Source of the DNA: Hydrogenophilales bacterium
GTDB taxonomy: Bacteria > Pseudomonadota > Gammaproteobacteria > Burkholderiales > Thiobacillaceae
Reading direction: 5' to 3'
NCBI GenBank assembly: GCA_016719465.1
Contig: JADJYY010000019.1
Span: 5,136-69,135 of the forward strand
Length of the DNA stretch: 64,000 nucleotides
Shown: positions 31,313 through 48,962 of the stretch, one piece after another
How positions within the stretch are numbered: the stretch's first letter is position 1
Layout of the letters: each line of letters starts with the position of its first letter
Made by a program: the position numbers and the translations under genes
Notes under the pieces: generated by a model
The model's input: only the letters and a program-made list of their open reading frames with translations
Told to the model about the DNA's origin: nothing
Databases searched by the model: none

Positions 31313-31341
31313 GCGCCTACCCGAGGCGGATCCCGACCGGC

Positions 31342-31364: not shown

Positions 31365-32136
31365 ATTGGGTCGCCGGCCGGAACAGTTCGAAGAAGTTCC
31401 GGGTCGTCGCCTCCGCCACCTCGGCGAGGGGAATGCCCCGCAGGCTGGCGATCTCCTCGGCCACGTGGCGCACGTAGGCGGGCTCGTTGCGCCGGCCGCG
31501 ATGAGGCACGGGCGCCAGGTAGGGGGAATCCGTCTCGATCAGCAGCCGCCCCAGGGGGACACGCCGGGCCACGTCCTTCAGATCGCTGGCGCTCTTGAAA
31601 GTGACGATGCCCGAGAGCGAGATATGGAATCCCATATCCAGGGCGAACTTGGCCACGTCCCAGGTTTCGGTGAAACAGTGCATCACGCCGCCCGCATCCC
31701 CGGCCCCCTCCTCCGCCATGATGGCCAGCGTGTCTCCGACGGCATTCCGGGTATGAATGATGAGGGGCTTGCCGGCCAGGCGCGCGGCGCGGATATGGGC
31801 GCGGAAACGGTGGCGCTGCCAGTCCACCTCCTCGCGCTTCATGCGGTAGTAATCCAGTCCCGTCTCGCCGATGGCCAGGACTTTGGGATGGCGGGCCAGG
31901 TCCACCAGCTCCGCCACCGAGGGCTCGCGACCTTCATCATGATCGGGGTGCACCCCCACCGAGGCATAAATATTGTCATGGGCCTCGGCCAGGGCCAGCA
32001 CCCGGGGGAAGGTCTCCAGGCCGACGGCGACACACAGGGCGTGGCTCACGCCGGCAGCCGCCATATTGGCCAGCAGCGGCACGACGCCCTCGGAGAACTC
32101 CGGGAAATCGATGTGGCAGTGGGAGTCTACGAACAT
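31363..32136 (-). CDS. tatD: TatD-family metal-dependent hydrolase (YcfH-like)
   Basis: 257-aa ORF MFVDSHCHIDFPEF... It lies in the conserved tmk-holB-pilZ-tatD context. Confidence 0.9.
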   Translation of the reverse strand: MFVDSHCHIDFPEFSEGVVPLLANMAAAGVSHALCVAVGLETFPRVLALAEAHDNIYASVGVHPDHDEGREPSVAELVDLARHPKVLAIGETGLDYYRMKREEVDWQRHRFRAHIRAARLAGKPLIIHTRNAVGDTLAIMAEEGAGDAGGVMHCFTETWDVAKFALDMGFHISLSGIVTFKSASDLKDVARRVPLGRLLIETDSPYLAPVPHRGRRNEPAYVRHVAEEIASLRGIPLAEVAEATTRNFFELFRPATQ

Positions 32137-32281
32137 GGGGAGAAGGGGAATAGAAAGTGGGGAGTGGGCGGTTCGCAGTCGTTAGAGCGGGTACGGGTTG
32201 TTGCATTTCGATTCGCCTGGCGCGGACACGCAAGTCACCACTCCCCTTCCTACTTCCTACTTCCTACTACCCACTCCCCAA
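32137..32281. repeat. Heptad-periodic inverted-repeat intercistronic element H1 (pilZ stop to tatD ATG)
   Basis: The plus-strand left arm is AGTGGGG AGTGGGC GGTTCGC AGTCGTT. The right arm is ACTTCCT ACTTCCT ACTACCC ACTCCCC. GGGGAGTGGG and CCCACTCCCC are complementary. The element fills the whole 145-nt spacer. Confidence 0.7.
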
Positions 32282-32647
32282 TCACATCGTATGGGTCAGG
32301 CGGGTGGACTTCATGGCATTGCCGAGCATGCCCTCGATCTTCTGGCGAACCGCCGTGGCGCCCTCGCCTTCGTCGAACTGCACGCCGATGCCTTGCTGGC
32401 GGTTGCCCTGGGCGCCGGAGGGGGTGATCCAGACCACCTTGCCGGATATCGGCAACTTGTTGGGTTCATCCATCAGGGTCAGCAGCATGTAGACCTGATC
32501 GCCCATCTGGTAGGGCCGGTTGGTGGGGATGAACAGGCCGCCGCCCTTGACGTAGGGCATGTAGGCGGCGAACAGGGCGGAACGTTCCTTGATGGCCAGG
32601 GAGAGCATCCCGGCTCGGCCGGCTGTCTGGCGCGTGCTTTCACTCAT
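32282..32647 (-). CDS. pilZ: PilZ-domain protein (type IV pilus assembly PilZ-like)
   Basis: 121-aa ORF downstream of holB; GLFIPTNRPYQMGDQVYMLLTLMDE...GIGVQF. Confidence 0.85.
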   Translation of the reverse strand: MSESTRQTAGRAGMLSLAIKERSALFAAYMPYVKGGGLFIPTNRPYQMGDQVYMLLTLMDEPNKLPISGKVVWITPSGAQGNRQQGIGVQFDEGEGATAVRQKIEGMLGNAMKSTRLTHTM

Positions 32648-33638
32648 GGCTGCCTCGGGTTACCTGGACGTAGCGGATGAGCCAGGATTCTAGCAACAAC
32701 TGGGCGCTCAACGGGTGGCGCAACCAGCGGGCGGCCTCGCTCAATTCCCGCTGAAAATCCAGCAGGCCGACCAGGTCCGCCTGCCGGGCGACCTGATCGA
32801 TCGCGGAAGACCGATCGCGAAAATAGCGGTTGCCGCCGGCAGACCGCAGCGCGACGAGGTCGTAGGTCCAGCGGGCCAGCCATCCCCAACTTTCGACCAG
32901 GAAATCCTTTTGCGACTGGGCCAGGGCGCAGGGGTCCATGCGGGCCGGGCGGGCGAGTTCGTCGAGAAAGGCTTCCAGGCGCGATCGCCGTTCCGGATCC
33001 GCGTAGCACAGGGCGGTCAGGGGCGCGCCTCCCGCCTCCGCCAACACATCCTCCGGCGACCCCACCCCGGCCTGTCGCAACCATTCCAGGGCCGCCTCCC
33101 GGGGGGGCGGGCTCACCGCCGCCTGGCGGCAGCGGGAGATCACGGTGGGCAGCAGACGGCCGGGCTGGTGCGATACCAGGATGAGGAGCACGCGGGGCGG
33201 AGGTTCTTCCAGGGTCTTGAGGAGCGCATTGGCGGCGGCGGCATTCATGTACTCCGCCGGATGGACCACCGCCGCGCGCCAGCCGCCGCGATGGGCGGTG
33301 AGACCCAGGAAATCGGTGATGCCGCGCACCGATTCCACGCTGATCTGTTTGCTGGCCTTCTTCGTCACCTTGCCGCTGTCGTCGACCTCCTCCTCCTGGG
33401 GTTCGACCTGGCGGAAGTCGGGATGATTGCCCTGGAGGAACCAGTTGCAGGCATCGCAGACGCCGCAGGCGCCGTTGGCTGTGGGGGCTTCGCACAAGGC
33501 CCACTGGGCCAGTCCCATCGCCAGGTCCCGTTTGCCCACGCCGGCGGGCCCGCGCAGCAGCAGGGCGTGGGGCATGCGTTCCCGATCAACGGTGAGTTGC
33601 CGGAACAGGGGCAGATTCCAGGGGTGGATCACGCCCAT
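32640..33638 (-). CDS. holB: DNA polymerase III subunit delta'
   Basis: 332 aa from the internal ATG at 33638 ([15 protein letters not shown]...); [13 protein letters not shown] and [10 protein letters not shown] motifs. It overlaps the tmk stop. Confidence 0.9.
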
Positions 33639-34237
33639 GACTCCAGGATGCCGGCTAACTGGGCGCGCACGTCCTCCAGACTCCGGCTGCCGTCGATCAC
33701 CCTGATCCGCACCGGATGACGTTCCGCCCGGCGCAGGTAGGCGGCGCGCACGCGGGCATGGAAATCGCCTTTTTCCCGCTCGAACCGATCCGGCGAACGG
33801 GCCGTGGCCAGGCGCCGGGCGGCGATCTCCGTGGGCAGGTCGAACAACAGGGTGAGGTCGGGATTCAGGTCGGCGTGGACCCAGGATTCCAGCACTTCCA
33901 GACGGGCATCGGGCAGGCCGCGACCCCCGCACTGGTAGGCGAAGCTTGCGTCGGTGAAGCGGTCGGAGATCACCACTTCGCCCTTGGCGAGGGCGGGCCG
34001 GATGACCTGTTCGATATGCTCGCGCCGGGCCGCGAACATGATCAGCGCCTCGGTCTCGGCATGCATGGGTTCATGCAGGACGATCTCGCGCAGTTGCTCT
34101 CCCACCGGCGTCCCGCCCGGCTCCCGCGTCATGCGCACGACACGACCCCGCGCGGAGAACCAGGCGGCCAGCCAGTCCAGATGGCTGCTCTTGCCGGCGC
34201 CGTCGACGCCTTCCAGGGTGATGAACAAGCCTTGCAT
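33629..34237 (-). CDS. tmk: Thymidylate kinase
   Basis: 202 aa from the ATG at 34237: [18 protein letters not shown] (P-loop). Confidence 0.93.
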
Positions 34238-34247
34238 GGAGGACTTT

Positions 34248-35246
34248 CTAACGTTTCTGGTAGCGGGACACGGCCCGGTTGTGTGCGTCCAGGTTATCGG
34301 AAAACTCATGCCTGCCGTTGCCCTTGGCGACAAAATACAGGGCCCGGCTCTTGTCCGGATTGAGGGCCGCGCGCAGGGCCTCGGCCCCGGGAAGGGCGAT
34401 GGGGGTGGGCGGCAGGCCGGCCCGGGTATAGGTGTTGTAGGGCGTATCGGTGAGCAGATCGTCCTTGCGCAGGTTGCCGTCGAAACCGGGGCCGATGCCG
34501 TAGATCACGGTCGGGTCGGTTTGCAGGCGCATGCCGATGCGCAGGCGGTTGACGAACACGGAGGCGATCAATGGCCGTTCCTCGGGCGCCCCGGTTTCCT
34601 TCTCGATGATGGAGGCCATGGTCAACGCTTCGTAGGGCGTCCGGTAAGGCAAGCCGCCGGCCCGTGCCGGCCATTGGGCCTCCACCAGCTTCTTCATGGC
34701 GCCGTAGGCGCGCTTGTAGATGGCCAGGTCGGAACTGCCGGCATCGAAGAAATAGGTGTCCGGAAAGAACAGGCCTTCCGGATGGCCTTCGCTGGCATCG
34801 ACCGCCCGGAGCAACTCACCGGCCGACATGCCGGCGCTGTCGTGGCGCAGGTCGGGATGGGCGTCCACCGCCCGACGCATGTCGGCGAAGCTCCACCCTT
34901 CCACGATGGTGAGCTTGCCCAGCACCATCTCGCCCTGGGTGATCTTGCGCAGCAGGGCCATGGGCGTGGTCGGACCATCCAGGGCGTAGCTGCCCGCCTT
35001 GACGTCACCCGCCAGGCCTCGGATGCGCGCGATGAGGACAAAAGCCCAGGGATTTTCCAGGGCGCCCGCGGCGCGCAGGTCCTGACTGGCCTTTTTCAGG
35101 GTGGCGCCGCGCTCGATGGAAAAAGCCAGGGGATAGGCCACGCCCGTTTCCCCCATGGGCGTGCTGGCGTAGTAGAGCAACCAAGCGGCCAGGCCAAGGC
35201 CGGCGAGTAGCGCAAGGGCAAGAAGCCGGGAAATAGGTTTACGCAT
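34248..35246 (-). CDS. mltG: Endolytic murein transglycosylase MltG (YceG family)
   Basis: 332-aa ORF with an N-terminal TM segment; [18 protein letters not shown] motif. Confidence 0.9.
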
Positions 35247-36063
35247 CCAGGAATCCCGCCAGGCGCGGGCCGACGAGGGGTTGGGGCCAGGTTTTATCGC
35301 CCAGGCGGGCCACCCGGCGAAGGCCCATCAGGCTATTGGTCAGCATGACCTCATCCGCGTCCAGCAATGCCGCCAAGTCGAAATCCGCTTCTTCCACGGT
35401 CAGGCCCTCCGCCGCCGCCCTCCGCATCAGCCGGGCTCGGGCCACACCCGCCACACCGCACTGTTCCAGGCTCGGGGTTTGCAGGCGCCCGTTTCGCCAC
35501 AGGAAGAGATTGCTCGACACGCCGCAAACCACTCGGCCGGAGTGATCCAGGAGTATGCCCTCGTCAATGGCGGGATCATTCCATTCCGCCCGGGCCAGGA
35601 CATTCTCCAGGCGATTCAGATGCTTGATGCCGGCCAGGGCGGGCTGCGGCCCCAAGCGCAGCTGGCACACCCGCAGGGTCAGCCCTTCCCTGGGGTATTC
35701 GGCGCCATCACCAGGCCAGCAGGTCAGTATGCGCGTGCATCGCGGGGAGATCGGTGGACGATAGCCGCGCGGCCCTTCGCCGCGAGTCAGCGTAAGGCGG
35801 AGCACGCCCGACGCCGGCAACGGCTCAAGCCGGGCCAGGTCCCGGTCGAGAACCGTCGCGTCGGGACAATCCAGGCCCAGGCGGTTACAGTCCTCGGCAA
35901 GCTTGGCCAGATGATCGCTCCACCAACGCGGCCGGCCGTCCGCGATACGGAGGGTGCGAAACACCCCGTCGCCGTAGTTCAGGCCCCGGTCCAACGCGGC
36001 AATGCGGGTTGCCGCGAGGCCGTTGATCAGAATGCGGGGAAGAACGCCTGGCTGAGCAGCCAT
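35239..36063 (-). CDS. pabC: Aminodeoxychorismate lyase (class IV aminotransferase fold)
   Basis: 274-aa ORF with RGLNYGDGVFRTLR. The fabF-pabC-mltG-tmk order is conserved. Confidence 0.8.
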   Translation of the reverse strand: MAAQPGVLPRILINGLAATRIAALDRGLNYGDGVFRTLRIADGRPRWWSDHLAKLAEDCNRLGLDCPDATVLDRDLARLEPLPASGVLRLTLTRGEGPRGYRPPISPRCTRILTCWPGDGAEYPREGLTLRVCQLRLGPQPALAGIKHLNRLENVLARAEWNDPAIDEGILLDHSGRVVCGVSSNLFLWRNGRLQTPSLEQCGVAGVARARLMRRAAAEGLTVEEADFDLAALLDADEVMLTNSLMGLRRVARLGDKTWPQPLVGPRLAGFLDA

Positions 36064-36085
36064 CGAGCCTACCCGATGGCCGAAC

Positions 36086-37339
36086 TCAAACCCTGCGGAA
36101 GATCAGGGTGCCGTTGGTGCCGCCGAAGCCGAAGTTGTTCTTCAGCGCCAGCTCGATCTTCATGGGCCGCGCCACATTGGCGCAGTAGTCCAGGTCGCAC
36201 TCCGGATCCTGCTCGAAGAGATTGATGGTGGGCGGCGAGACCTGGTGATGCACGGCCAGGGCGGTGAACACGGATTCAACCCCGCCGGCGCCACCCAGCA
36301 GGTGGCCGGTCATGGACTTGGTGGAGTTCACCACCAGCTTGCGCGCCGCGTCGCCGAAGGCCAGCTTGATGGCCTCGGTCTCGTTCTTGTCGCCCAGGGG
36401 CGTGGAGGTGCCGTGGGCGTTGATGTACTGGACCTCATCCGGATTGATGCCCGCGTCGCGCAGGGCGTTGACCATGGAGCGCCTGGGACCGTCGGTATCC
36501 GGCGCGGTCATGTGGAACGCATCGCCACTCATGCCGAAGCCGGCGATTTCCGCGTAGATGCGGGCGCCGCGCGCCCTGGCGTGCTCGTATTCCTCCAGGA
36601 CCATGACGCCGGCGCCCTCGCCCAGCACGAAGCCGTCCCGGTCCTTGTCCCAGGGACGACTCGCCGTGGCGGGATCGTCGTTGCGGGTGGACAGGGCCTT
36701 GGCGGCGGAGAAACCGCCCACGGCCAGGGGACAGACCGTGGATTCGGCGCCACCGCAGACCATCACATCCGCGTCGCCGTGCTCGATCATGCGGGCGCTG
36801 GTACCGATGGCGTGCAGGCCCGTGGTGCAAGCGGTGACCACGGCCAGGTTGGGCCCCTTGAGGCCCAACAGGATGGACAGGTTGCCCGAGATCATGTTGA
36901 TGATGGTGCCCGGGATGAAGAAGGGCGAAATCTTGCGGGGCCCACCGGTTTCCACATAGGTCTGGTGGGTATCCTCGATCATGGGCAGGCCGCCGATACC
37001 CGAACCGATATTGACGCCGATCCGCTCCCGGTTCGCATCCGTGATTTCCAGCCCGGAATCCTTGACGGCATCGATCCCCGCCGCCAGGCCGTAATGGATG
37101 AAGACATCCATGCGCCGGGCCTCCTTGGCGGAGAGGTATTTGGCCACATCGAAGTCTTTGACCTCCCCCGCGATCTGGGAAGGAAACCCGGTGGGATCGA
37201 AGCGGCTGATGCGGGTGATTCCGGAACGACCCGCGATGATATTGGCCCAGCCTTCTTCCACGGTGTTACCCACCGGTGAAATCAAACCTAAGCCGGTAAC
37301 CACCACTCTGCGCCTGGGGGGACGGGAAACCTGGGACAA
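36086..37339 (-). CDS. fabF: 3-oxoacyl-ACP synthase II
   Basis: 417-aa ORF; [13 protein letters not shown] (active-site Cys) and [11 protein letters not shown] motifs. Confidence 0.96.
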
Positions 37340-37356
37340 GATAAGGCTCCTGATGC

Positions 37357-37387
37357 GGAAAAAGAAAAAAACCCGGCCGAGGCCGGG
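37357..37387 (-). terminator. Rho-independent terminator after acpP
   Basis: The minus strand reads CCCGGCCTCGGCCGGG followed by TTTTTTTCTTTTT. Confidence 0.7.
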
Positions 37388-37430
37388 CGCGCGCGCCGCC
37401 GCGAGGCCGGCGACGCGCGGTATACCGCGA

Positions 37431-37670
37431 TTACTTGTTCAGGTGGCCGTTGATGTAATCAACAGCTTGCTGGACGGTGGTGATCTTCTCGGCTTCCTCG
37501 TCGGGAATCTCGCACTCGAAGGCCTCTTCCAGAGCCATCACCAGTTCCACCGTGTCGAGAGAGTCGGCGCCCAGGTCATCCACGAAGGAAGACTCCAGCT
37601 TGACGTCGGCTTCATTGGCGCCCAGCTGCTCGGCGACGATCTTTTTGACACGCTGCTCAATATCACTCAT
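37431..37670 (-). CDS. acpP: Acyl carrier protein
   Basis: 79 aa [17 protein letters not shown]...[13 protein letters not shown] (phosphopantetheine Ser). Confidence 0.97.
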
Positions 37671-37766
37671 CAGAAAACTCCCTACGGGTAGCAAAAAAGC
37701 GGGGGCATTCTAGCAAAACCCCGCGACGAAGAATCAATTGGATGGCGAATAATACGACTTCCCGCC

Positions 37767-38504
37767 TCAATCCATGTACATGCCGCCGTTGACATGCAGG
37801 GTGGCGCCGGTGATGTAGCCCGCCCCATCGGAGGCCAGGAAGGCCACGCCGTGGGCGATATCCTCGGGCGTGCCCAGTTTGCCGAGGGGGATCCGCTCCA
37901 TCAGCTTGCTCCTGGCCGCCTCGGGCAAGGCCTTGGTCATGTCGGTGTCGATGAAGCCTGGCGCCACGCAATTGACCGTGATGCCCCGGCTGCCCACTTC
38001 CTGGGCCAGGGACTTGGAAAACCCGATCATGCCGGCCTTGGCGGCGGCGTAATTGGTCTGGCCCGCGTTGCCGGAGGCCCCCACCACCGAGGCGATGCTG
38101 ATGACGCGGCCGAAGCGGGCCTTCATCATGGGCCGCAGCACGGCGCGGGAAAGGCGAAACACGGAGGTGAGATTGGTGTCGATGATGGACGCCCATTCCT
38201 CGTCTTTCATGCGCATCAGCAGGTTGTCCCGGGTGATGCCGGCATTGTTGACCAGGATATCGATGCGGCCGTGCCGTCCCAGGATGCCGTCGATGGCGGC
38301 GTCCACCTGGGCGGCATCGTTCACGTTCAGCATCAGGCCCTCGCCCTTGAGGCCGGCTTCGGCCAGGCCCGCGCCGATGGCCTCGGCTCCGGACTCGCTG
38401 GTGGCGGTGCCCACCACGATGCAACCGGCCTGGCCCAGGGCGTGCAGAATGGCCTTGCCGATGCCCCGGGATGCGCCGGTGACCAGCGCTACGCGTGCTT
38501 CCAT
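37767..38504 (-). CDS. fabG: 3-oxoacyl-ACP reductase
   Basis: 245 aa from the ATG at 38504, with SD AAGGAG upstream; TGASRGIGKA and YAAAKAG motifs. Confidence 0.95.
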   Translation of the reverse strand: MEARVALVTGASRGIGKAILHALGQAGCIVVGTATSESGAEAIGAGLAEAGLKGEGLMLNVNDAAQVDAAIDGILGRHGRIDILVNNAGITRDNLLMRMKDEEWASIIDTNLTSVFRLSRAVLRPMMKARFGRVISIASVVGASGNAGQTNYAAAKAGMIGFSKSLAQEVGSRGITVNCVAPGFIDTDMTKALPEAARSKLMERIPLGKLGTPEDIAHGVAFLASDGAGYITGATLHVNGGMYMD

Positions 38505-38514
38505 GCTCGCCTCC

Positions 38515-39447
38515 TTAAGTCTTGATTTTCGCCAGGGTGTCCGCCATGGCGGCGGCATCGGCCAGGGCGACGCCGGTGACGCCGTCCACGATGCGTTTGT
38601 TCAGGCCGGCCAGCACCTTGCCAGGGCCACATTCGGCGATCAGTTCGACGCCCCCGGCGGCCATGGCCTGAATGGTTTCGACCCAGCGCACCGGGCTGTA
38701 AAGCTGCCGGGCCAGGGCATCGCGGATGGCCGCCGGATCGGCATGGCCGGCCACGTCCGCGTTGTGCAGAACGGGCACCACGGGCGACTTCACCTCGATG
38801 CCGGCCAGGGCGGCAAGGAGTTTTTCCGCCGCGGGCTTCATGAGGGCGCAGTGGGACGGCACGGATACCGGCAGGGGCAAGGCCCGCTTGGCGCCCTTCT
38901 CCTTGGCCAGGGCGCAGCCCCGGTCCACCGCCGCCCGGTGGCCGGCGATGACCACCTGGCCCGGGGAATTGAAATTGACCGCTTCCAGAATCTCGCCCTG
39001 GGCCGCTTCCGCGCACACGGCGCGCACGGCGGCATCGTCCAGGCCAAGCACGGCGGCCATGGCGCCGACACCTTCCGGCACGGCGGACTGCATGGCCTCG
39101 GCCCGCAAGCGCACCAGTTTCACGGCATCGGCAAAGCCGATGGCATTCGCGCACACCAGGGCGCCATATTCACCCAGGCTGTGGCCCGCCATCAGCGCCG
39201 GCGCCGGACCACCCCGGCTTTGCCAGAGACGGTAAGCCGCCACGCCGGCCGCCAGCATCACGGGCTGGGTATTGACGGTCTGATTCAGGAGATCGGCGGG
39301 GCCGTCGCTCGCCATGATCCAGAGATCCTGGCCCAGGGCATCGGCTGCCTCGGCAAAGGTCTCGCGAACGGGCGCGGCATCGCCATAGCCGGCCATCATA
39401 CCCACCGACTGGGAGCCCTGGCCGGGGAACACGAATGCAAATTTCAT
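38515..39447 (-). CDS. fabD: Malonyl CoA-ACP transacylase
   Basis: MKFAFVFPGQGSQ...GHSLGEY. Start chosen at 39447, which has GGAGA upstream; the ORF-track start at 39471 is also possible. Confidence 0.93.
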   Translation of the reverse strand: MKFAFVFPGQGSQSVGMMAGYGDAAPVRETFAEAADALGQDLWIMASDGPADLLNQTVNTQPVMLAAGVAAYRLWQSRGGPAPALMAGHSLGEYGALVCANAIGFADAVKLVRLRAEAMQSAVPEGVGAMAAVLGLDDAAVRAVCAEAAQGEILEAVNFNSPGQVVIAGHRAAVDRGCALAKEKGAKRALPLPVSVPSHCALMKPAAEKLLAALAGIEVKSPVVPVLHNADVAGHADPAAIRDALARQLYSPVRWVETIQAMAAGGVELIAECGPGKVLAGLNKRIVDGVTGVALADAAAMADTLAKIKT

Positions 39448-39484
39448 GGACATCTCCGATTGATCGCTCAAGCGAACCGACGGG

Positions 39485-40459
39485 TCAAAAACGAACGAGT
39501 ACCGATCCCCAGGTGAAACCGCCGCCGAAGGCTTCCATCAGTACCGTTTCGCCCACCTTGATCTTGCCTTCCCGCACGGCCGTGTCCAGAGCCAGGGGGA
39601 TGGAAGCGGCGGAGGTGTTGCCATGGCGGTCCACCGTAACCACCACCCGCTCCATGCTCATGCCCAGTTTTTTCGCCGTGGCCTGGATGATGCGGATGTT
39701 GGCCTGGTGGGGCACCAGCCAGTCAATGTCGGTCTTGTTCAGGCCGTTGGCCTGCAGGGTTTCATCGACGATGGCGTCCAGGGTATTCACCGCCATCTTG
39801 AACACGGCGTTGCCGGACATGCGCATGTAGCAGGCGCCTTCCTTCTTGAGGGAAACGCCGCCATCCACGAACAGCAGGTCCTGGTAGCGGCCGTCGGCAT
39901 GGAGATGGGTCGCCAGGATGCCGGGCTCATCGGATGCCCGCAGCACCACGGCGCCGGCGCCGTCACCCCAGAGCATGCAGTTGCCCCGGTCGCTCCAGTC
40001 GGTGATGCGGGACAGGGTTTCCGCGCCCACCACCAGGGCGGTCCTGACCTGCCCGGAACGGATGAACTGGTCCGCCACCGACACGGCGTAGACGAAGCCG
40101 CTGCACACGGCCTGCACATCGAAGGCGGGACAGCCGTTGGTGATGCCCAGCTTGGCCTGGAGGACGCAGGCGGTGCCGGGGAATACGCGATCCGGCGTGG
40201 TCGTGGCGACCACGATGAGATCGATTTCGCCGGCGTCGATGCCGGCCGCCTCGATGGCCTTTTCCGCGGCCTGCTGGGCCAGATCGCTGGTGAGCTCGCC
40301 TTCGGCCGCGATATGACGTTCGCGGATGCCCGTGCGCTCGAGGATCCACTCGCTGGTGGTCTCGATCTGGGCCTCGAGTTCCGCGTTGGTCAGCACCCTG
40401 GCGGGAAGATGGCTGCCGGTGCCGATGATTCTCGAATAAATTCTGGACGCCTGATTCAA
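39485..40459 (-). CDS. fabH: 3-oxoacyl-ACP synthase III
   Basis: 324-aa ORF; AVCSGFVYA active-site Cys and [12 protein letters not shown] motif. Confidence 0.95.
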
Positions 40460-41502
40460 GCGGGTTCTCCTTCCTGGGCCAGGCCTTCGCCGCCGCCGTT
40501 GTGGATGCCGACCTGCTCGGCGATGCGCCGCAACAGACCGCCGCGCACTTCCTCGGCCGCCTTGAGGATGGCCTGTTCGAAGGCGAATACGTCGGCGGAG
40601 CCGTGGCTCTTGATGATCACGCCGTTGAGCCCCAGCAGGCTGGCGCCGTTATAGCGGCGCGGATCCAGCTTGCGCTTGAAGGCGCGCAACACGGGCAAGG
40701 CGATGATGCCGGCCAGGCGGGTGATGAGGTTTTTCTTGAATTCACCGCGCAACTGGTCGGCCATCAGCTTGGCCAGGCCTTCCGATGTCTTCAAGGCGAT
40801 ATTGCCGACGAAGCCGTCGCACACCACCACGTCCACGGTGCCCTTGTAGATGTCGTCGCCTTCCACGTTGCCCTGGAAATTGAGACCGCTGGTCTTGAGC
40901 AACTCGCCGGCCTGTTTCACCACCTCGTTGCCCTTGATGTCTTCCTCGCCGATATTGAGCAGGCCCACGCTGGGCCGCTCCTTGTGCTCGATGGCCGCGG
41001 CCAGGGCCGCCCCCATGATGCCGAACTGGAGCAGATGCTCGGCGCTGCAATCCACGTTGGCGCCCAGGTCCAGCACGTAAGTGCTGCCGGCGCGGGAAGG
41101 CAGGGTGGAAGCGATGGCGGGTCGATCGATGCCAGGCAGGGTTTTCAGTACGAAGCGGGAAACCGCCATGAGGGCGCCGGTATTGCCGGCGGAAACGCCG
41201 GCATCGGCCTCGCCGCGTTTCACCAGGTCGGCGGTCACGCGCATGGAGGAGTCCTTCTTGGTGCGCAAGGCGACCGGCAAGGGGTCGTCCATCTTCACCA
41301 CCTCGCTGGCGTGATGGACGCGCAGCCGGGTGCCCGGCTCGGCCTTGTTGGCTTTCAGTTCGGCGCGGATCACATCCGCCAGGCCGACCAGGACGATGTT
41401 GATGTCCGGCTCCTGGCGCAGGAAGTCCAGCGCGGCCCTGACGGTGACATGGGGACCGTGATCGCCCCCCATGGCGTCAATGGCGATTGTGATTTCTCGC
41501 AT
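40456..41502 (-). CDS. plsX: Phosphate acyltransferase PlsX
   Basis: 348-aa [20 protein letters not shown]... Confidence 0.95.
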
Positions 41503-41567
41503 GGTCGATCAGCCTGGCCGCGCGAGGACGCTCGCCCCCGCATGGCATTGCCGGTCGCGGAGAAGGA

Positions 41568-41753
41568 TCAGCTGTTGTCGGCCTTGGTGCTGACGACCTT
41601 GCGGCCACGATAGTAGCCGTTGGGGCTGATGTGGTGGCGCAGGTGCATTTCGCCGGTGGTGGCTTCCACGGCGGTGGGCGGCGTGGTCAGAAAATCGTGG
41701 GCGCGATGCATGCCGCGCTTGGAAGGGGACTTCTTGTTCTGTTGAACGGCCAT
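41568..41753 (-). CDS. rpmF: 50S ribosomal protein L32
   Basis: 61 aa [20 protein letters not shown]... Confidence 0.95.
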
Positions 41754-41781
41754 AACGTTCTCCTTGATTAAAACCTGTAAA

Positions 41782-42219
41782 TCAGGCCTGAAAGCCCGCG
41801 CCGCACCGCCCATCCTCATGACGGGGCGATACCGGCAGGCTCAAAATAATCTCGTCTTCCACCAGGCTTGCCACATCCAGGGGCGCTTCCGCGACCAGGG
41901 CATCCACCAGGGGATCTTCACTTTCCCAACGTTCCAGCTCGGCCTCATCCCGCGCCACGGACAGAACATTGCTCAATTCAAGCCGCTCCGGAAACTTTTC
42001 CAGACAACGCTGGCATGTCAGCCAAAGCCGGGCGTCGATCCGCAGCCGCAATACGGGCCGGCCCGCCTCCGATCCGCCCGCAATATGGTATTGCACTGCA
42101 ACATCATCTGAGGTCAAATTGTCGCGCAAGCGGGGCAACTCATCGACACGCAACTCGCCTTCCAGGCTTCCGCCGGAGCGGGCGAAGCGCAGCGCGTCCA
42201 AGAGTGCCGGTGCAGACAT
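41782..42219 (-). CDS. yceD: YceD (DUF177) family protein
   Basis: 145-aa ORF directly upstream of rpmF, with the acidic C-terminal half typical of DUF177. Confidence 0.85.
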
Positions 42220-42325
42220 AAGCCGGAAATGCTAAGCTTTACGGCCCTTTTTGTCAAAGTTACGAGGCCATTCAGAACAGGTTTCTTTCTGGAATCCTCT
42301 CGGTGCCACCTTCAAAGGCCATAGC

Positions 42326-43744
42326 GTGATCAAGAAGATACTCATTGCCAACCGGGGCGAGATCGCCGTCCGCATCGTGCGGGCTTGCAAGGAGATGGGG
42401 ATCAAGTCGGTGGCCATTTACACCGACGCCGATCGCCATGCCCTCCATGTCAAGAAGGCCGACGTGGCCTACAACATCGGCTCCGACCCGGTCCTGGGCT
42501 ACCTCAACGCCCACAACATCGTGAACCTGGCGGTAGCCTCGGGCTGCGACGCCCTCCATCCCGGCTATGGCTTCCTCTCGGAAAACCCCGTCCTGGCGGA
42601 AGTGTGCGCCCGGCGCGGCATCAAGTTCATCGGCCCCTCGCCGAAGGTCATCACCCAGATGGGCGACAAGATCCAGGCGCGCCAGGCCATGATCAAGGCC
42701 GGCATCCCGGTGGTGCCCGGTTCCGACCACAATCTCGAGAATGCCGAGGAAGCCCTGAAACTGGCCAAGGAAATCGGCTATCCGGTCATGCTCAAGGCCA
42801 CCAACGGCGGCGGCGGGCGCGGCATCCGGCGCTGCGACTCCGACGACGAGCTGGTCAAGAACTACGAGCGGGTGGTATCCGAAGCCACCAAGGCCTTCGG
42901 CAAGCCCGAGGTGTTCATCGAGAAGTGCGTGGTGAATCCCAAGCACATCGAGGTGCAGATCATCGGCGACAGCCACGGCAACTGCGTGCATCTGTACGAG
43001 CGGGACTGTTCCATCCAGCGCCGCAACCAGAAGCTCATCGAGATCGCCCCCTCGCCCCAGTTGACCGATGCCCAGCGGGAATACATCGGCAAGCTGGCGG
43101 TGCGCGCCGCCAAGGCGGTGGGCTACGAGAACGCCGGCACCGTCGAGTTCCTGCTGGACCACGACAACCAGTTCTACTTCATGGAGATGAACACCCGCCT
43201 CCAGGTGGAACACACGGTGACCGAGAACATCACCGGCATCGACATCGTCCAGGAACAGATCCGCATCGCCGACGACCTGCCCCTGCAATACAGACAGGAG
43301 GACATCCGCTATCGCGGCTTCGCCATGGAATTCCGCATCAACGCGGAAGACCCCCAGAACAGTTTCCTGCCCAGCTTCGGCCGCATCACCCGCTATTACG
43401 CGCCCGGCGGCCCCGGCGTGCGCACCGACGCGGCCATGTATTCCGGCTACACCATTCCGCCCTATTACGACTCCATGTGCGCCAAGCTCACCGTCTGGGC
43501 CCTGAACTGGGAGGCGGTCATCGAGCGGGGCCGGCGCGCCCTGGACGACATGAAGGTCTACGGCGTCAAGACCACCATCCCCTACTACCAGGAAATCCTG
43601 CTCTGCCCGGATTTTCGCACCGGCCGCTTCAACACCGGCTTCGTCGACGCCCACCCGGAACTCCTCAACTACGCGGTCAACCGCCCCCCCGAGCACGTGG
43701 CCGTGGCGCTCTCCGCGGCCATCGCCGCCCACCTCGGCATCTGA
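42326..43744 (+). CDS. Biotin carboxylase subunit (pyruvate carboxylase subunit A type)
   Basis: The GTG start at 42326 gives (M)IKKILIANRGEIAVRIVRACKEMGI... It has an ATP-grasp core and is followed by a carboxyltransferase/biotinyl subunit. Confidence 0.88.
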   Translation: MIKKILIANRGEIAVRIVRACKEMGIKSVAIYTDADRHALHVKKADVAYNIGSDPVLGYLNAHNIVNLAVASGCDALHPGYGFLSENPVLAEVCARRGIKFIGPSPKVITQMGDKIQARQAMIKAGIPVVPGSDHNLENAEEALKLAKEIGYPVMLKATNGGGGRGIRRCDSDDELVKNYERVVSEATKAFGKPEVFIEKCVVNPKHIEVQIIGDSHGNCVHLYERDCSIQRRNQKLIEIAPSPQLTDAQREYIGKLAVRAAKAVGYENAGTVEFLLDHDNQFYFMEMNTRLQVEHTVTENITGIDIVQEQIRIADDLPLQYRQEDIRYRGFAMEFRINAEDPQNSFLPSFGRITRYYAPGGPGVRTDAAMYSGYTIPPYYDSMCAKLTVWALNWEAVIERGRRALDDMKVYGVKTTIPYYQEILLCPDFRTGRFNTGFVDAHPELLNYAVNRPPEHVAVALSAAIAAHLGI

Positions 43745-43759
43745 ACGGAAGAAATCAAG

Positions 43760-45613
43760 ATGACTCAAGTCAAGATCACCGACCTGGTTCTGCGCGACGG
43801 ACATCAATCCCTGATCGCCACCCGCATGCGCACCGAGGACATGCTGCCCATCTGCGGCAAGCTCGACAGCGTGGGCTTCTGGTCCCTGGAAGCCTGGGGC
43901 GGCGCCACCTTCGACGCCTGCGTGCGCTTCCTCAAGGAGGACCCCTGGGAGCGCCTGCGCAAGCTGCGCCGGGCCCTGCCCAATTCCCGCATCCAGATGC
44001 TGCTGCGCGGCCAGAACCTGCTGGGCTATCGCCACTATCCCGATGACGTGGTGCGCGCCTTCGTCCAGAAATCCGCCGACAACGGCGTCGATGTGTTCCG
44101 CGTGTTCGACGCCATGAACGACATCCGCAACCTGCGCGTGTCCATCGAAGCGGTGAAGGCCGCCGGCAAGCACGCCGAGGGCACCCTCAGCTACACCACC
44201 AGCCCGGTGCACGACATCCCCTATTTCGTCGCCATGGCGCGCGAACTGGAAGCCATGGGCAGCGACACCCTGGCCATCAAGGACATGGCCGGCCTGCTCA
44301 CGCCCTACACCACGGCGGAGTTGGTGAAGGCCATCAAGGCCGCCGTCTCCATTCCCATTCACCTGCACAGCCACGCCACCTCCGGCCTGGCCAGCATGGT
44401 CCACATGAAAGGCGTGGAAGCCGGCGCGGTGATGATCGACACCTGTATTTCCGCCTTCTCCGAAGGCGCCAGCCACCCCACCACGGAAAGCCTTGTGGCC
44501 GCCTTCGCCGGCACCGAGTACGACACCGGTCTTGACTTGGGCAAGCTCCAGGAAATCGCCGCCTATTTCCGGGAGGCGCGCAAGAAATACTGGCAGTTCG
44601 AGATGACCGGCCCCCAGGTGGATACCCGCATCCTGGTCTCCCAGGTGCCGGGCGGCATGATTTCCAACCTGAGCAACCAGCTCAAGGAACAGGGCGCCCT
44701 GAACCGGATGGACGACGTCCTGGCGGAAATCCCCCGGGTGCGCGCCGACCTGGGTTTTCCGCCCCTGGTCACCCCCACTTCCCAGATCGTCGGTACCCAG
44801 GCCGTGCTCAACGTGCTCACCGGCGGCCGCTACAAGTCGGTCACCAACGAGGTGAAGAACTACCTGCTGGGCCGCTACGGCGCCGCGCCGGGCACGGTCA
44901 ACGAGGAAGTGAAAAAGATGGCCGTGGGCAACCAGGAGGTCATCACCTGCCGTCCGGCCGACCTGATCGGCGACGAACTGGACAAGCTGCGCGGCGAAGC
45001 CGAGGGCCTGGCCAAGTCCGACGAGGACGTGCTGACCTACGCCATGTTCCCGGACATCGGCCGCACCTTCCTGCAGGAACGGGCCGCCGGCACCCTGACG
45101 CCGGAAACCCTGCTGCCGCCGGAATCCCGCGAGGCCATGTCCTGCCCCGCCGTCTACGCCCCCAGCGAATTCAACGTCACCCTGCACGGCGAGACCTACC
45201 ACATCCGCATCAAGGGCACCGGCCACGGCGGCGAGGGCCAGCGGCCGTTCTACGTGCACGTGGATGGCGTCGCCGAGGAAGTCCTGCTGGAAGCCCTGGA
45301 CGAGGTGGAAGTCACCCCGGGCACGGCCGCGCCCCGCAAGGCTTCCGGCAAGAAGGACAGCGGCGGCAGCAAGCAGCGTCCGCGCCCTACCCACGCTGGC
45401 TGCGTCACCACCGCCATGCCCGGCACCATCGTCGACGTCAAGGTCAAGCCCGGCGACAAGGTCAAGGCCGGCGACGGCGTGCTGGTCATCGAGGCCATGA
45501 AGATGGAAAACGAGGTGCAGGCCCCGGTGGCGGGCACCGTGGTCCAGGTCCATGTGGCCAAGGGCGACGCGGTGACGCCGGATCAGGTCCTGGTGGAGAT
45601 ACAGCCTGAGTAA
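43760..45613 (+). CDS. Carboxyltransferase + biotin carrier subunit (pyruvate carboxylase subunit B / OadA-like)
   Basis: 617-aa ORF MTQVKITDLVLRDGHQSL... with a C-terminal biotinyl motif VIEAMKMENEV. Confidence 0.88.
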   Translation: MTQVKITDLVLRDGHQSLIATRMRTEDMLPICGKLDSVGFWSLEAWGGATFDACVRFLKEDPWERLRKLRRALPNSRIQMLLRGQNLLGYRHYPDDVVRAFVQKSADNGVDVFRVFDAMNDIRNLRVSIEAVKAAGKHAEGTLSYTTSPVHDIPYFVAMARELEAMGSDTLAIKDMAGLLTPYTTAELVKAIKAAVSIPIHLHSHATSGLASMVHMKGVEAGAVMIDTCISAFSEGASHPTTESLVAAFAGTEYDTGLDLGKLQEIAAYFREARKKYWQFEMTGPQVDTRILVSQVPGGMISNLSNQLKEQGALNRMDDVLAEIPRVRADLGFPPLVTPTSQIVGTQAVLNVLTGGRYKSVTNEVKNYLLGRYGAAPGTVNEEVKKMAVGNQEVITCRPADLIGDELDKLRGEAEGLAKSDEDVLTYAMFPDIGRTFLQERAAGTLTPETLLPPESREAMSCPAVYAPSEFNVTLHGETYHIRIKGTGHGGEGQRPFYVHVDGVAEEVLLEALDEVEVTPGTAAPRKASGKKDSGGSKQRPRPTHAGCVTTAMPGTIVDVKVKPGDKVKAGDGVLVIEAMKMENEVQAPVAGTVVQVHVAKGDAVTPDQVLVEIQPE

Positions 45614-45753
45614 TCAGTGAAGGGGGAAGGGTCCGCGCCTTGGGCGCTCAAGGGGGAAGGGTAAAAGCCCGCCCCTTCACCCTTCACCCTTCACCCTTCA
45701 CCCTTCACCCTTCACCCTTCACCCTTCACCCTTCACCCTTCACCCTTCACCCC
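45614..45753. repeat. Heptad-periodic intercistronic element H2 incl. (CCTTCAC)x11 at 45674-45750
   Basis: G-rich segments GTGAAGGGGGAAGGGT (45617-45632) and AAGGGGGAAGGGT (45650-45662) come first. CCCGCC and 11 perfect CCTTCAC units follow, then CCC and the maf ATG. Confidence 0.9.
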
Positions 45754-46344
45754 ATGCGCCTCGTCCTGGCCTCCACCTCCCCCTACCGCCGCGAACTGTT
45801 GGCGAGGTTGGGCGTGCCCTTCGAGGTGGCGGCACCGGAAGTGGACGAGACGCCGCTGCCCGGCGAATCCCCCGACGACACCGCCCAGCGCCTGTCCGTG
45901 TTGAAGGCCCGGGCCGTCGCGGCACGTTTTCCCGATGCCCTGATCATCGGCTCGGATCAGGTCGCCTTGCTCGAAGGCGTGCAACTGGGCAAACCCGGCA
46001 GCCACGAAAACGCGGTGGTCCAACTGCGCGCCATGCGTGGCAAGACCCTGGAATTTCACACCGCACTGACCCTGCTGAACGCGAAAACCGGCTCGGTCCA
46101 GACAGCCAACGTACCCGTTCGCCTGGTGATGCGGAATTACAGCGATGCCCAGATCGAGACCTATCTGAGGAAGGACCAGCCCTACAACTGCTGCGGCAGC
46201 GCCCGTAGCGAGTCCCTGGGCATCGCCCTCATCGCCCGTTACGAGACCGAGGACCCCAATGCCCTGGTGGGCCTGCCCCTGATCAAGCTCACGGAGATGC
46301 TGGCCAACGAAGGCCTGGACGTGCTGACTTACGGGGAGGAGTAA
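45754..46344 (+). CDS. maf: Maf-like nucleoside triphosphate pyrophosphatase
   Basis: 196 aa from the ATG at 45754: MRLVLASTSPYRRELLARLGVPFEV... Confidence 0.9.
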   Translation: MRLVLASTSPYRRELLARLGVPFEVAAPEVDETPLPGESPDDTAQRLSVLKARAVAARFPDALIIGSDQVALLEGVQLGKPGSHENAVVQLRAMRGKTLEFHTALTLLNAKTGSVQTANVPVRLVMRNYSDAQIETYLRKDQPYNCCGSARSESLGIALIARYETEDPNALVGLPLIKLTEMLANEGLDVLTYGEE

Positions 46345-46347
46345 GGC

Positions 46348-47103
46348 GTGCCCTCGCAAGGCGAGGATGAAAGGAACGAGAAGAAGCTTGTGCCTGGCAC
46401 CCTGTTCCTCATCCCCACCCCCCTCGGCGATACCCCACTGGAACACGTCCTGCCCGAGGAGACCCGCCGCATCGCCGCCGGGCTGTCGGTCTTCATCGTC
46501 GAACAGGCCAAGACCGCGCGCGCCTTCCTCAAGCAGGTGCCCACAGCAACTCCTTTACAGCAACTGACCCTGCTGGAACTCAACGAACACACGCCGAAAG
46601 ACCGTCTCGAAAACCTGCTTGCCCCCCTCCTGGCCGGGCAGGATGTGGGCCTGGTCTCGGAGGCCGGCTGCCCGGCGGTGGCCGATCCGGGCGCCGATCT
46701 GGTCCGCCTGGCCCACCGCCACGGCATCCATGTGCGACCGCTGGTGGGGCCTTCTTCCATCCTGCTGGCCCTGATGGGTTCCGGCCTGGTCGGGCAACGC
46801 TTCGCCTTCCACGGCTACCTGCCGACCAAACCGGAAGACCGGGCCAAGGCCTTGCGCGAACTGGAAAAACGCGCGGAGAAGGACGATGCGGCCCAGGTCT
46901 TCATCGAGACGCCGTATCGCAACTCCGCCATGCTGGAAGCCATCCTGGCGGCCTGCCGGGACGACACCCTGGTAACGATCGCCCGCGATCTGACCCTGGA
47001 GGGTGAATATCTGGTCACCCGGCCGGTGTCGGCTTGGCGCGTTAGCGCGCCGGACATCCAGAAACGTCCGACCGTCTTCCTGCTGTACCGTCCCAAAACC
47101 TGA
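46348..47103 (+). CDS. SAM-dependent methyltransferase, tetrapyrrole-methylase (RsmI-like) fold
   Basis: 251-aa ORF with a GTG start; LFLIPTPLGD and GLVSEAGCPAVADPG motifs. Confidence 0.75.
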   Translation: MPSQGEDERNEKKLVPGTLFLIPTPLGDTPLEHVLPEETRRIAAGLSVFIVEQAKTARAFLKQVPTATPLQQLTLLELNEHTPKDRLENLLAPLLAGQDVGLVSEAGCPAVADPGADLVRLAHRHGIHVRPLVGPSSILLALMGSGLVGQRFAFHGYLPTKPEDRAKALRELEKRAEKDDAAQVFIETPYRNSAMLEAILAACRDDTLVTIARDLTLEGEYLVTRPVSAWRVSAPDIQKRPTVFLLYRPKT

Positions 47104-47106
47104 TCA

Positions 47107-47968
47107 TCAAAACGCCTCGCGCATGCGCAGATAGCTGGCGAAGCGGGGCAGGCCGTTCTTGTTCAGTTCGCGGTAGCGGTAGGTGATCAAGGCGCCGATG
47201 GGTGGTGGCGCGCGGCGGGTTTCATCCTTGAAACCGGTGCCGATCCGGAAGCGCCGGCCATCCGTCATCTCCACCCGCAACGCCCCCAGCATGCCCCGGT
47301 ACCTGCCCTGTCCCGGCACATGGCCGATGACGGTGGCTTCCGCGTCCAGCCAGGGCTTCACTTTCAGCAGGACATCGCCGCGTCCGGTCACGTAGGGCGC
47401 ATCCGCCAGGTGCAGCATCAAGCCCTCGCCTCCAGCCCGCACCACTTCGTTCATGCGCCGCATCAGTTCCGCCCGATCGGCCACGCGATAATGCTCCACG
47501 GCTTGCAGCCAGGGCACCGCGGAAGTCCGGACAAGGGCCCCCATGGCTTCGATCCGTTCGCTGAAGGTACCTGGCGCCTCCGGCAGTTCGAACACCATGT
47601 AGCGCACCTGGCGCCACTCCTCGTCCACGGGCTTGTTGCTTGCGCACGATGCCGGAGAGGCGGTCGAAACCGCCACGACCGAGCCAGAGTTCCCCATCCA
47701 GGGGCCGGGCTGGAAACCCGGCGGTGAACCAGGCGGGCGCGTGGACCGCCTGGCCGCTACGGAACCACAAGGACTTGCCGTCCCAGAATGCCCGGGCGCC
47801 ATCCAGCTTCTCGCTGACCCAATACAGCGAAACATCGGTCTGGTTCTGGAAGACGTTGGCGAGCAACAAGGCCGGGGCCGAAGGATGCTCATCGGCGAGG
47901 GAGGCCCGCGCCAGCCCAACCAGCAGCAGGAAGCCGACGAGAACGAGGCACCAGGGGCGTCGGATCAT
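47107..47968 (-). pseudogene. Periplasmic ATP-dependent DNA ligase (LigE-like), with a 1-nt frame disruption near 47632-47641
   Basis: The N-terminal part (frame of ORF 47222..48040) has a signal-like MIRRPWCLVLVGFLLLVGLARA and the adenylation motif SEKLDG. The C-terminal part (frame of ORF 47107..47919) continues KPVDEEWRQVRYMVFELP...LMLHLADAPY. The span is 862 nt, which is not a multiple of 3. Confidence 0.8.
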
Positions 47969-47987
47969 GGGCCCCCGACGGGCGGCA

Positions 47988-48875
47988 TCAGACCGGAAAA
48001 ACCCCGGTGGACAGGTAGCGGTCGCCCCGGTCGCAGACAATGGAGACGATGACCGCGTTCTCCACCTCCCTGGACAGTTGCAGGGCGGCGTACAGGGCGC
48101 CGCCCGAGGAGATGCCGGCGAAGATGCCCTCCTCGCTGGCCAGGCGCCGAGCGGTCTCCTCGGCGGCGGCCTGGCCCACGTAGATCATGCGGTCCACCCG
48201 GTCGTAGTCGCAGATGCTGGGCACGTATTCCGCCGGCCACTTGCGGATGCCGGGAATCTGGGCGCCCTCCTCCGGCTGCACGCCGACGATCTGGATGGCC
48301 GGGTTCACTTCCTTGAGGTAGCGGGAGCAGCCCATGATGGTGCCGGTGGTGCCCATGCTGGAGACGAAGTGGGTGACGCGCCCTTCCGTGTCGCGCCAGA
48401 TCTCCGGGCCGGTGGATTCGTAATGGGCCGCCGGGTTATCCGGGTTGGAGAACTGGTCGAGGATCTTGCCCCGGCCTTCCCGCTGCATCTGCTCGGCCAG
48501 GTCGCGGGCGCCTTCCATGCCGGCTTGCTTGCTCACCAGCACCAGGTCGGCCCCATAGGCCTTCATGGTCTGGCGCCGTTCGATGGAGAGGTGCTCGGGC
48601 ATGATCAGCACCATGCGGTAGCCGCGGATGGCGGCGGCCATGGCCAGGGCGATGCCGGTGTTGCCGCTGGTGGCCTCGATCAGGGTGTCGCCGGGCCTGA
48701 TCTCGCCCCGTGCCTCGGCCTTGGCGATCATGGACAGGGCCGGACGGTCCTTCACGGAGCCAGCCGGGTTGTTGCCCTCCAGTTTCACCAGCACCACGTT
48801 GGAGGTTTCGCCCGGCAGCTTCTTCAGGCGGACCAGGGGAGTGTTGCCGACGAAATCTTCGATGGATTTGTACAT
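47988..48875 (-). CDS. cysM: Cysteine synthase B (O-acetylserine sulfhydrylase)
   Basis: 295-aa ORF; NPAGSVKDRPAL (PLP Lys) and TSGNTGIALA motifs. Confidence 0.92.
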   Translation of the reverse strand: MYKSIEDFVGNTPLVRLKKLPGETSNVVLVKLEGNNPAGSVKDRPALSMIAKAEARGEIRPGDTLIEATSGNTGIALAMAAAIRGYRMVLIMPEHLSIERRQTMKAYGADLVLVSKQAGMEGARDLAEQMQREGRGKILDQFSNPDNPAAHYESTGPEIWRDTEGRVTHFVSSMGTTGTIMGCSRYLKEVNPAIQIVGVQPEEGAQIPGIRKWPAEYVPSICDYDRVDRMIYVGQAAAEETARRLASEEGIFAGISSGGALYAALQLSREVENAVIVSIVCDRGDRYLSTGVFPV

Positions 48876-48962
48876 AGGTGAAAGTAGTCAGTTGGCAGTC
48901 ATCAGTGGGCGGTAGCGAGGGCGGTGGCTGGATTCCGCCTACTGGCGACTGCCTACTGTCGA
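48876..48962. repeat. Heptad-periodic inverted-repeat intercistronic element H3 (ugd stop to cysM ATG)
   Basis: Plus strand reads AGTAGTC AGTTGGC AGTCATC AGTGGGC GGTAGCG ... CTACTGG CGACTGC CTACTGT CGACTAG. The arms are ~29 nt and imperfectly complementary. The element fills the whole 87-nt spacer. Confidence 0.75.

Follow-up and report, generated by a model that had tools for sequence, protein, structure and literature searches.

Heptanucleotides have been described as the dominant class of long simple sequence repeats (SSRs), and polymerase slippage was proposed as their origin (Mrazek 2007, as cited in PMC4679880 and PMC4692102). In Xanthomonas campestris and Xanthomonas citri, 186 and 183 (GGGANTN)n sites were found, of which 89-93% are intergenic and mostly lie between co-directional open reading frames (ORFs); 70-75 sites per genome consist of two convergent arrays, which are potential stem-loops (Rehm 2015, PMC4692102). 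The G-rich arrays are located on the coding strand 0-50 nt past the stop codon or overlap it, and the C-rich arrays are located just before starts, likewise on the coding strand. The two species share sites, the length and sequence of which vary extensively, and no link to mobile elements was found (PMC4692102). Here we describe three intercistronic spacers, H1, H2 and H3, in a 64-kb stretch of DNA from a Hydrogenophilales bacterium (contig JADJYY010000019.1). All positions refer to this stretch, called the window in the following; relatives and metagenome contigs carry L numbers. In our opinion the balance of probability tilts slightly toward the three elements being palindromic heptanucleotide microsatellites that are shaped at the DNA level and have incidental effects at the RNA level.

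A second kind of array, built from TAACTGA, occurs in marine Beggiatoaceae, Thiocystis, cyanobacteria and some Bacteroidetes. These arrays mostly face starts, the largest class ending 1 nt upstream, and a Shine-Dalgarno (SD) sequence is present in only about 10% of the cases; a translational role was proposed for them, with S1, Csp or CsrA as the binding protein (MacGregor 2015, PMC4679880). Cyanobacterial STRR repeats are mentioned in the Xanthomonas paper (PMC4692102). In view of the Xanthomonas and Beggiatoaceae repeats, the original prediction, made from the sequence of the window, was mistaken in stating that no heptad-built family had been described in proteobacteria. Our literature search found no report of such repeats in Thiobacillus or other betaproteobacteria. 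We conclude that H1-H3 add a new lineage, and new units, to a kind of bacterial repeat that is already on record.

The coordinates of the three elements and the co-directionality of the flanking genes had been given correctly, and H1, H2 and H3 all fit one architectural class of intercistronic hairpins (Table 1). The start codons of TatD, Maf and CysK are reliable, because the Pfam alignments of these proteins begin at residues 1-5. In the window each element extends from stop to start, as claimed. To say that the spacer is exactly filled is, however, partly circular, as the pycB-maf spacer of the relative L015 is 12 nt long and has no element.

The arms consist of phased heptads, NNNNAGT in the 5' arm and ACTNNNN or ACCCTTC in the 3' arm, the first heptad of H1 being located 2 nt past the pilZ stop. 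Period-7 arrays were detected by TRF at 32246-32268 (3.3 copies), 45673-45752 (11.4 copies, 100% matches) and 48937-48958. Across the 64 kb, in-phase runs of at least four ACT or AGT were found only in H1 and H3, where about 0 were expected. CCGCCC stands at the inner start of each 3' arm (32166-32171, 45669-45674 and 48907-48912), and the 10-mer ACCGCCCACT, present in three copies in the window (0.19 expected), is common to H1 and H3 at the start of the 3' arm. The C-rich arm had been proposed to be CCGCC(C) followed by ACY-N4 heptads. CCGCCC was indeed found at all three elements, whereas only two of the four 3'-arm units of H1 are strictly ACY-N4; in H1 the heptads are cleaner in the 5' arm (AGGAAGT three times) than in the 3' arm. 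As a signature of the family CCGCC(C) was rejected: all three elements of the window have it, but it is absent from the H1 of strain L003 and from all three elements of the relative L014 (see below). The heptad units differ among the window copies (AGGAAGT, GTGAAGG and CAGTAGG), and the arms of H2 are unbalanced, about 4 G-units standing against 11-14 C-units. A G3N4 spacing, which would permit a quadruplex, was found only in the antisense strand of H2, as (TGAAGGG)n.

Table 1. Positions of the three heptad elements, their parts and neighbouring genes, and of a second palindromic repeat family in the window
Feature	Position	Strand	Description
H1	32137-32281	-	pilZ stop to tatD ATG
H1 5' arm	32238-32281	-	TT GGGGAGT GGGTAGT AGGAAGT AGGAAGT AGGAAGG GGAGTGG (gene sense)
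H1 core (centre)	32172-32237	-	Reverse complement, about 82% identity, of the core in L001-L010 at the orthologous spacer
H1 3' arm	32137-32171	-	CCGCCC ACTCCCC ACTTTCT ATTCCCC TTCTCCCC; abuts tatD ATG at 32136
Genes around H1	31363-32647	-	pilZ 32282-32647; tatD 31363-32136
H2	45614-45753	+	pycB stop to maf ATG
H2 5' part	45614-45667	+	GTGAAGGGGGAAGGGT, mini-hairpin, second copy AAGGGGGAAGGGT, AAAAG
H2 GC mini-hairpin	45633-45647	+	CCGCGCC-TTG-GGCGC
H2 3' arm	45668-45753	+	CCCGCC, then (CCCTTCA)x11.4 up to maf ATG (45754)
Genes around H2	43760-46344	+	Pyruvate/oxaloacetate carboxylase B subunit (pycB) with biotinyl domain 43760-45613; maf 45754-46344
H3	48876-48962	-	udg stop to cysK ATG
H3 5' arm	48935-48962	-	TCGA CAGTAGG CAGTCGC CAGTAGG CGG; begins at udg stop TAG (48963-48965)
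H3 centre	48913-48934	-	AATCCAGCCACCGCCCTCGCTA
H3 3' arm	48876-48912	-	CCGCCC ACTGATG ACTGCCA ACTGACT ACTTTCA CCT, then cysK ATG (48875)
Genes around H3	47988-50129	-	UDP-glucose dehydrogenase (udg) 48963-50129; cysK 47988-48875
Second palindromic family	1491-1608
Second palindromic family	5017-5139
Second palindromic family	9454-9577
Second palindromic family	11549-11676
Second palindromic family	11677-11810
Second palindromic family	13185-13336

The elements resemble the Xanthomonas type in several respects: the 7-nt units are heterogeneous and tandem, typically about four in number, with a few conserved positions; convergent arrays form an inverted repeat, as seen in H1-H3; the location is intergenic between housekeeping neighbours, with the G-rich array after the stop and the C-rich array before the start; and orthologous sites in relatives vary in length and sequence. 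The differences lie in the unit, which is GGGAATC/GGGANTN and quadruplex-forming in Xanthomonas and has an AGT/ACT or GTAG/CTAC core here, and in the host, which here is a betaproteobacterium. Moreover, the downstream ORF is on average 160 nt away in Xanthomonas, whereas here the whole spacer is filled up to the ATG, and the flip of the core between strains, described below, was not reported there. With the TAACTGA arrays the elements share ACT heptads directly before mostly SD-less starts, in sense orientation and at the place of the ribosome binding site, as well as interruption by related 7-mers and housekeeping genes among the downstream genes. The 64-kb window, which has a G+C content of 65.5%, contains no TAACTGA array; the closest sequences, ACTGATG and AACTGAC in H3 and a (CAACTGA)n array of Sulfuricella, match it in 5-6 of 7 positions. 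In contrast to H1-H3, the TAACTGA arrays repeat a single fixed unit in direct orientation (of 170 cases only one is inverted), they have no complementary 5' arm and no predicted structure, and they occur in low-GC genomes. Cyanobacterial STRR repeats are tandem heptamers that reportedly have an AGT core (CCCCAGT, CAACAGT) and are intergenic, often inside operons; they belong to another phylum and are mostly direct arrays.

The variation of the elements among near-identical strains bears directly on how they arise. A TatD identical to that of the window is encoded by ten contigs. In nine of these (the chimeric L005 being excluded) the spacer between pilZ and tatD measures 135-147 nt and the differences are whole heptads: among strains with identical TatD, H1 gains or loses single 7-nt units. 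The H1 of the window aligns to the strain variants only as the reverse complement (local score 125 vs 40, about 82% identity). The two genes beside the flipped H1, pilZ and tatD, show no nucleotide difference (100% identity), and the 8-kb flanks are 99.5-99.7% identical. Compared with L003:9859-10000, H1 is inverted and about 18% diverged, which is about 45 times the flank average. An active inversion switch was rejected because the two orientations are not the same sequence and differ by this 18%. A promoter-carrying inverton was likewise rejected, as no promoter-like site was found at the elements in a terminator and promoter scan of 31000-50500.

For the (CCCTTCA) array of H2, 11.4 copies were counted in the window, as against 14.4 in two near-identical contigs. 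One of the two breaks inside the array, and contig L011 (L011:1-118) begins in it; short-read assemblies break at this repeat, and copy numbers derived from assemblies are therefore uncertain. H3 is identical in three contigs. Contig L005 encodes the exact TatD of the window, and its upstream half comes from a different organism (PilZ 56% identical, GC 61%), with the junction inside the 3' arm of H1 (L005:192-243, L005:9935-10000). Its foreign part carries (TTTTTAG)4 just upstream of rpmF. Either the assembly of L005 is chimeric or recombination took place at the repeat.

By PlsX the nearest relatives of the window are Thiobacillus metagenome-assembled genomes (MAGs), with 82-85% identity. One of them, L014, has heptad palindromes at all three orthologous spacers, between genes whose proteins are 81-94% identical to those of the window. 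These palindromes consist of 4-5 heptads of the GGTAGNN type, a GCGCGCC-N3-4-GGCGCGC mini-hairpin and 4-5 heptads of the NNCTACC type, followed by the ATG. The three copies are alike from end to end (79% column identity over about 105 nt), and their predicted folds have energies of -55 to -64 kcal/mol (z = -6.6 to -8.0). As the L014 units differ from those of the window in both arms, both arms changed unit together between sister species. Other relatives have no heptads at these places: besides the 12-nt pycB-maf spacer of L015, GC hairpins without heptads were found in L016 at two of the three spacers. Heptad arrays were also found at the fabH-fabD spacer, in Sulfuricella L018 as (GTCAGTT)n...(AACTGAC)7 followed by AAGGA and the ATG, and in the Burkholderiales MAG L060 as CGACTAC-type arrays.

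To see how widely such arrays occur, metagenome contigs were scanned for four in-phase GTAG heptads. At least 120 stretches were obtained (L094-L213); the counts given here and below are among the matches listed. Inverted pairs with the G-arm before the C-arm numbered 24 and pairs of the opposite type 3, while 77 arrays were single and 16 lay at contig ends. The GC content of the contigs ranges from 31 to 70%, and among the units that recur are CAGTAGN, seen also in H3 and in the H1 of L003, and GGAAGTA, seen also in the H1 of the window. Of the paired elements, 11 lie between co-directional ORFs, 3 between convergent ones and 1 between divergent ones. Their 5' arm abuts or overlaps the stop codon (gaps of -18 to +29 nt), the TAG of a heptad often being the stop itself, and the downstream start is 7-201 nt away, sometimes with an ordinary SD. 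A GGTAGNN/NNCTACC palindrome closely resembling those of L014 lies between divergently transcribed genes at L177:2935-3045, which shows that such elements are not confined to stop-to-start spacers. One of the genes flanking the L177 copy starts with MATIQATRVKKGMLVKMGED and looks like an EF-P family protein.

Arrays located inside long ORFs have the CTAC form on the coding strand in 12 of 12 cases, which is expected since GTAG arrays stop all frames. The orientation of single arrays relative to genes was not used as a result, ORF calling on short contigs being noisy; the apparent preference of single G-type arrays for positions after stops is trivial, because a GTAG array terminates any ORF.

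These observations can be combined into the following scheme for a microsatellite shaped at the DNA level. The element would consist of two inverted 7-nt arrays around a short GC-rich core, with NNNNAGT or GTAGNNN units in the 5' arm and their complement in the 3' arm. Replication slippage would generate and resize the arrays, as suggested by the 7-nt step changes observed among strains. Arm exchange or template switching could flip the core and keep the arms alike, which would explain the observed flip and the observed joint change of the arms. In some genomes copies would also spread or be homogenised, as the three similar copies of L014 suggest. In short spacers the element would persist because genes are not broken by it, and its 5' arm would carry stops in several frames on both strands. 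It would be transcribed as part of the operon mRNA and is predicted to form a strong stem-loop that spans the distance between the stop codon and the following start. In this form it may protect the 3' end of the upstream cistron, and by variably masking the SD-less downstream start it may render translation partly dependent on ribosomes terminating upstream. Such consequences at the RNA level are likely by-products and not a designed function.

Several observations weigh against this scheme. Slippage alone does not explain a 3-4-nt core (AGT/ACT, GTAG/CTAC) that recurs across loci, species and phyla, nor does local slippage account for the 10-mer shared by H1 and H3, for the three mutually similar copies in L014 or for the 24:3 excess of the G-arm-first type. 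The occupation of three orthologous spacers in two species (85% PlsX identity) suggests retention or targeting. In addition, no simple model accounts for the 18% divergence of H1 beside flanks with 0%; the jump could have arisen by conversion from a paralogue outside the sequences compared, or by template-switch mutations in a cluster. For the 24:3 bias two reasons may be considered. The 5' arms may keep ORFs from entering the element by putting an inward TAG in all three frames on both strands; this cannot be general, because GGGAATC has no stop codon. Alternatively, a C-rich arm that is transcribed first may be disfavoured as it would be exposed to Rho.

An alternative to the microsatellite reading is a mobile or copy-converting element of the REP/REPIN or MITE kind, in which a GTAG-headed palindrome would be spread by a REP-associated tyrosine transposase (RAYT) or a similar enzyme and the heptads would serve as reiterated recognition or cleavage motifs. 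In L014 and in many of the metagenomic copies the conserved core of the heptads is GTAG/CTAC, and GTAG is reportedly the conserved 5' head of REPs. The mutual likeness of the L014 copies points in the same direction, the jump of H1 beside identical flanks would fit conversion from a paralogous copy, and a fixed G-arm-first type is expected from descent from one element. As in REP, BIME and REPIN sequences of gamma- and betaproteobacteria, imperfect palindromes with a GTAG/CTAC motif at the outer end are located after stops in short spacers, are transcribed with the operon and vary among strains; REPs are also known to stabilise upstream mRNA. In REPs, however, one conserved unit of 20-40 nt is present in tens to hundreds of copies together with a cognate RAYT, whereas here the arms are 7-nt tandem arrays and the unit varies among copies, the three window copies carrying three different ones. 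A MITE was rejected: although the arms are inverted repeats, no direct duplication of a target site was visible at any copy. A tblastn search of about 2.1 Mb, comprising the window and the loci, with an E. coli RayT query gave no RAYT-like ORF, which is weak evidence. The Xanthomonas heptamer repeats show no association with insertion sequences or transposons (PMC4692102), and the sharing of three occupied spacers by two species argues for inheritance over repeated transposition. The REP/BIME comparison, which the original prediction offered as a fallback, came closer than its lead hypothesis. We consider a mobile element unlikely.

The lead hypothesis had been a dedicated device for re-initiation from stop to start. 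The predicted fold energies of H1, H2 and H3 are -58.2, -50.4 and -35.8 kcal/mol (z = -3.2, -3.6 and -5.4), and for each spacer 0 of 200 dinucleotide shuffles folded as well as the real sequence. In the window and in L014 the predicted stems begin 0-9 nt past the stop codon and end 0-10 nt ahead of the AUG, which favours the hypothesis. A gathering-level Rfam search of the window gave no match, and E-value searches of the three spacers returned only microRNA-precursor noise (E at least 0.08). If the elements were functional at the mRNA level, the terminating ribosome would melt the base of the stem, expose the SD-less start and re-initiate; in another version, the ACU-N4 array would be bound by an RNA-binding protein (S1, CspA-like or CsrA-like). 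Such a function is also favoured by the anti-SD pairing of the tatD, maf and cysK starts, which is the worst among 37 genes (+0.7 to +3.6 kcal/mol), by the Beggiatoaceae arrays that face starts and were assigned a translational role (PMC4679880), by the (CAACTGA)n array ahead of fabD in Sulfuricella L018, which matches TAACTGA in 6 of 7 positions, and by the 24:3 G-arm-first bias.

Two of the features noted together with the re-initiation hypothesis did not bear it out. It had been noted that in each element the G-rich arm precedes the C-rich arm relative to transcription. An inverted repeat, A-loop-A', has the identical arm order on both strands, and H3 read on the + strand also shows an AGT-run followed by an ACT-run, though its flanking genes are on the - strand. 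The polarity argument is therefore void: the arm order belongs to the type of element and is no orientation bias. Orientation can be read only from the asymmetric core, and the orientation of the core is not fixed. As to the starts, no SD was found at tatD, maf and cysK, in agreement with the claim, but such starts are common in the window. A 4-nt SD was seen at only about 15 of the 37 neighbouring genes and none at about 22 (approximately 60%), and tatD and maf are SD-less also in heptad-free relatives (Thiobacillus, Sulfuricella and Methylophilaceae). The local gene survey and these relatives rule out SD-lessness as a property of the element.

Further observations argue against an mRNA function. 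Predicted pairing in the H1 of the window reaches position -2, whereas L003 leaves the final 16 nt ahead of the tatD AUG unpaired; start masking is thus not conserved from strain to strain. The core, too, changes orientation among strains, and the unit numbers of the arms are unbalanced and polymorphic; in the predicted fold of H2 most of the C-rich arm has no pairing partner. An ordinary SD follows some of the copies (L110, L129 and L018), other copies are in convergent or divergent spacers, and the gene pairs are functionally unrelated (pycB/maf, udg/cysK). A dedicated re-initiation device is thus not supported, and because start masking differs between strains and the C-rich arm of H2 is mostly unpaired, we regard a functional mRNA element, be it a coupling device or a binding array, as doubtful.

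The elements could also punctuate transcription, either as terminators or attenuators lacking a U-tract or, in the case of H2, as a Rho loading site, with the copy number tuning read-through. In Methylophilaceae and relatives (L021, L023, L027, L028, L030, L031, L033, L049 and L053) a classic intrinsic terminator, a hairpin followed by a T-run, lies between pycB and maf, which are therefore separate transcription units in these lineages. The (CCCUUCA)11-14 stretch of H2 would provide 80-100 nt of G-free, C-rich RNA that is mostly unpaired by prediction, and unpaired RNA of this kind has the textbook composition of a rut site. A G-arm-first order would presumably hide the C-rich arm from Rho once made. 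An intrinsic terminator in the window was rejected, however, since no T-run follows any of the stems, each of which leads to an ATG, and the terminator scan was empty at H1-H3. In addition, H1 and H3 lack a long unpaired C-rich stretch, and holB-pilZ-tatD is a conserved tight cluster with overlapping genes or short spacers. Transcription punctuation appears highly improbable to us.

A broader proposal can be made: palindromes of fixed polarity, with GTAG/AGT heptads in the 5' arm and CTAC/ACT heptads in the 3' arm, would be a widespread, selected form of operon punctuation that insulates cistrons, hands ribosomes or a heptad-reading protein to SD-less starts and can be tuned in unit number by slippage. 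As both strands of the palindrome read alike, any transcript would then meet stops in all frames, followed by a G-poor, SD-free run up to the next start. We hold this proposal to be quite unlikely.

Other repeats of the window were noted in the course of this work. A second, unrelated family of dispersed palindromic repeats, about 120-130 nt long and with nested C-first hairpins (AAATCCCTCC..AAGGGAGGG..CTCCCCCCTTTCCTAAAGGGGGG..GGGGGGGATTT), has six copies in the first 14 kb (Table 1). Several of them fill spacers of same-strand genes, so that spacers colonised by palindromes are nothing unusual in the source genome. At 4335-4438, inside an apparent minus-strand ORF (3208-5808), there is an inverted repeat of a C-run and a G-run with 36-nt arms (TCCCTCCCCCC..GGGGGAGGGA), which the metagenome contig L186 resembles (about 92% over 35-41 nt). 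Within the minus-strand ORF 6236-7477, positions 7163-7330 consist of 2.2 tandem copies of a 78-nt period; shorter periods of 12 and 24 nt, rich in GTGG/ATGG, are nested in it, and the region probably encodes a repetitive stretch of protein.

Among long simple repeats, those with a 7-nt unit are the most common in many bacterial genomes, and the present results extend them to Thiobacillus-like betaproteobacteria. H1-H3 are compact and testable cases, in which a single palindrome makes up the entire spacer between two housekeeping genes. The flip of the core with about 18% divergence, the joint switch of the arms and the 24:3 polarity constrain models of how such elements evolve. If the elements do couple or tune the translation of genes with SD-less starts, they would represent a new layer of operon regulation; if they do not, they would offer a clean system for the study of slippage and palindrome dynamics.

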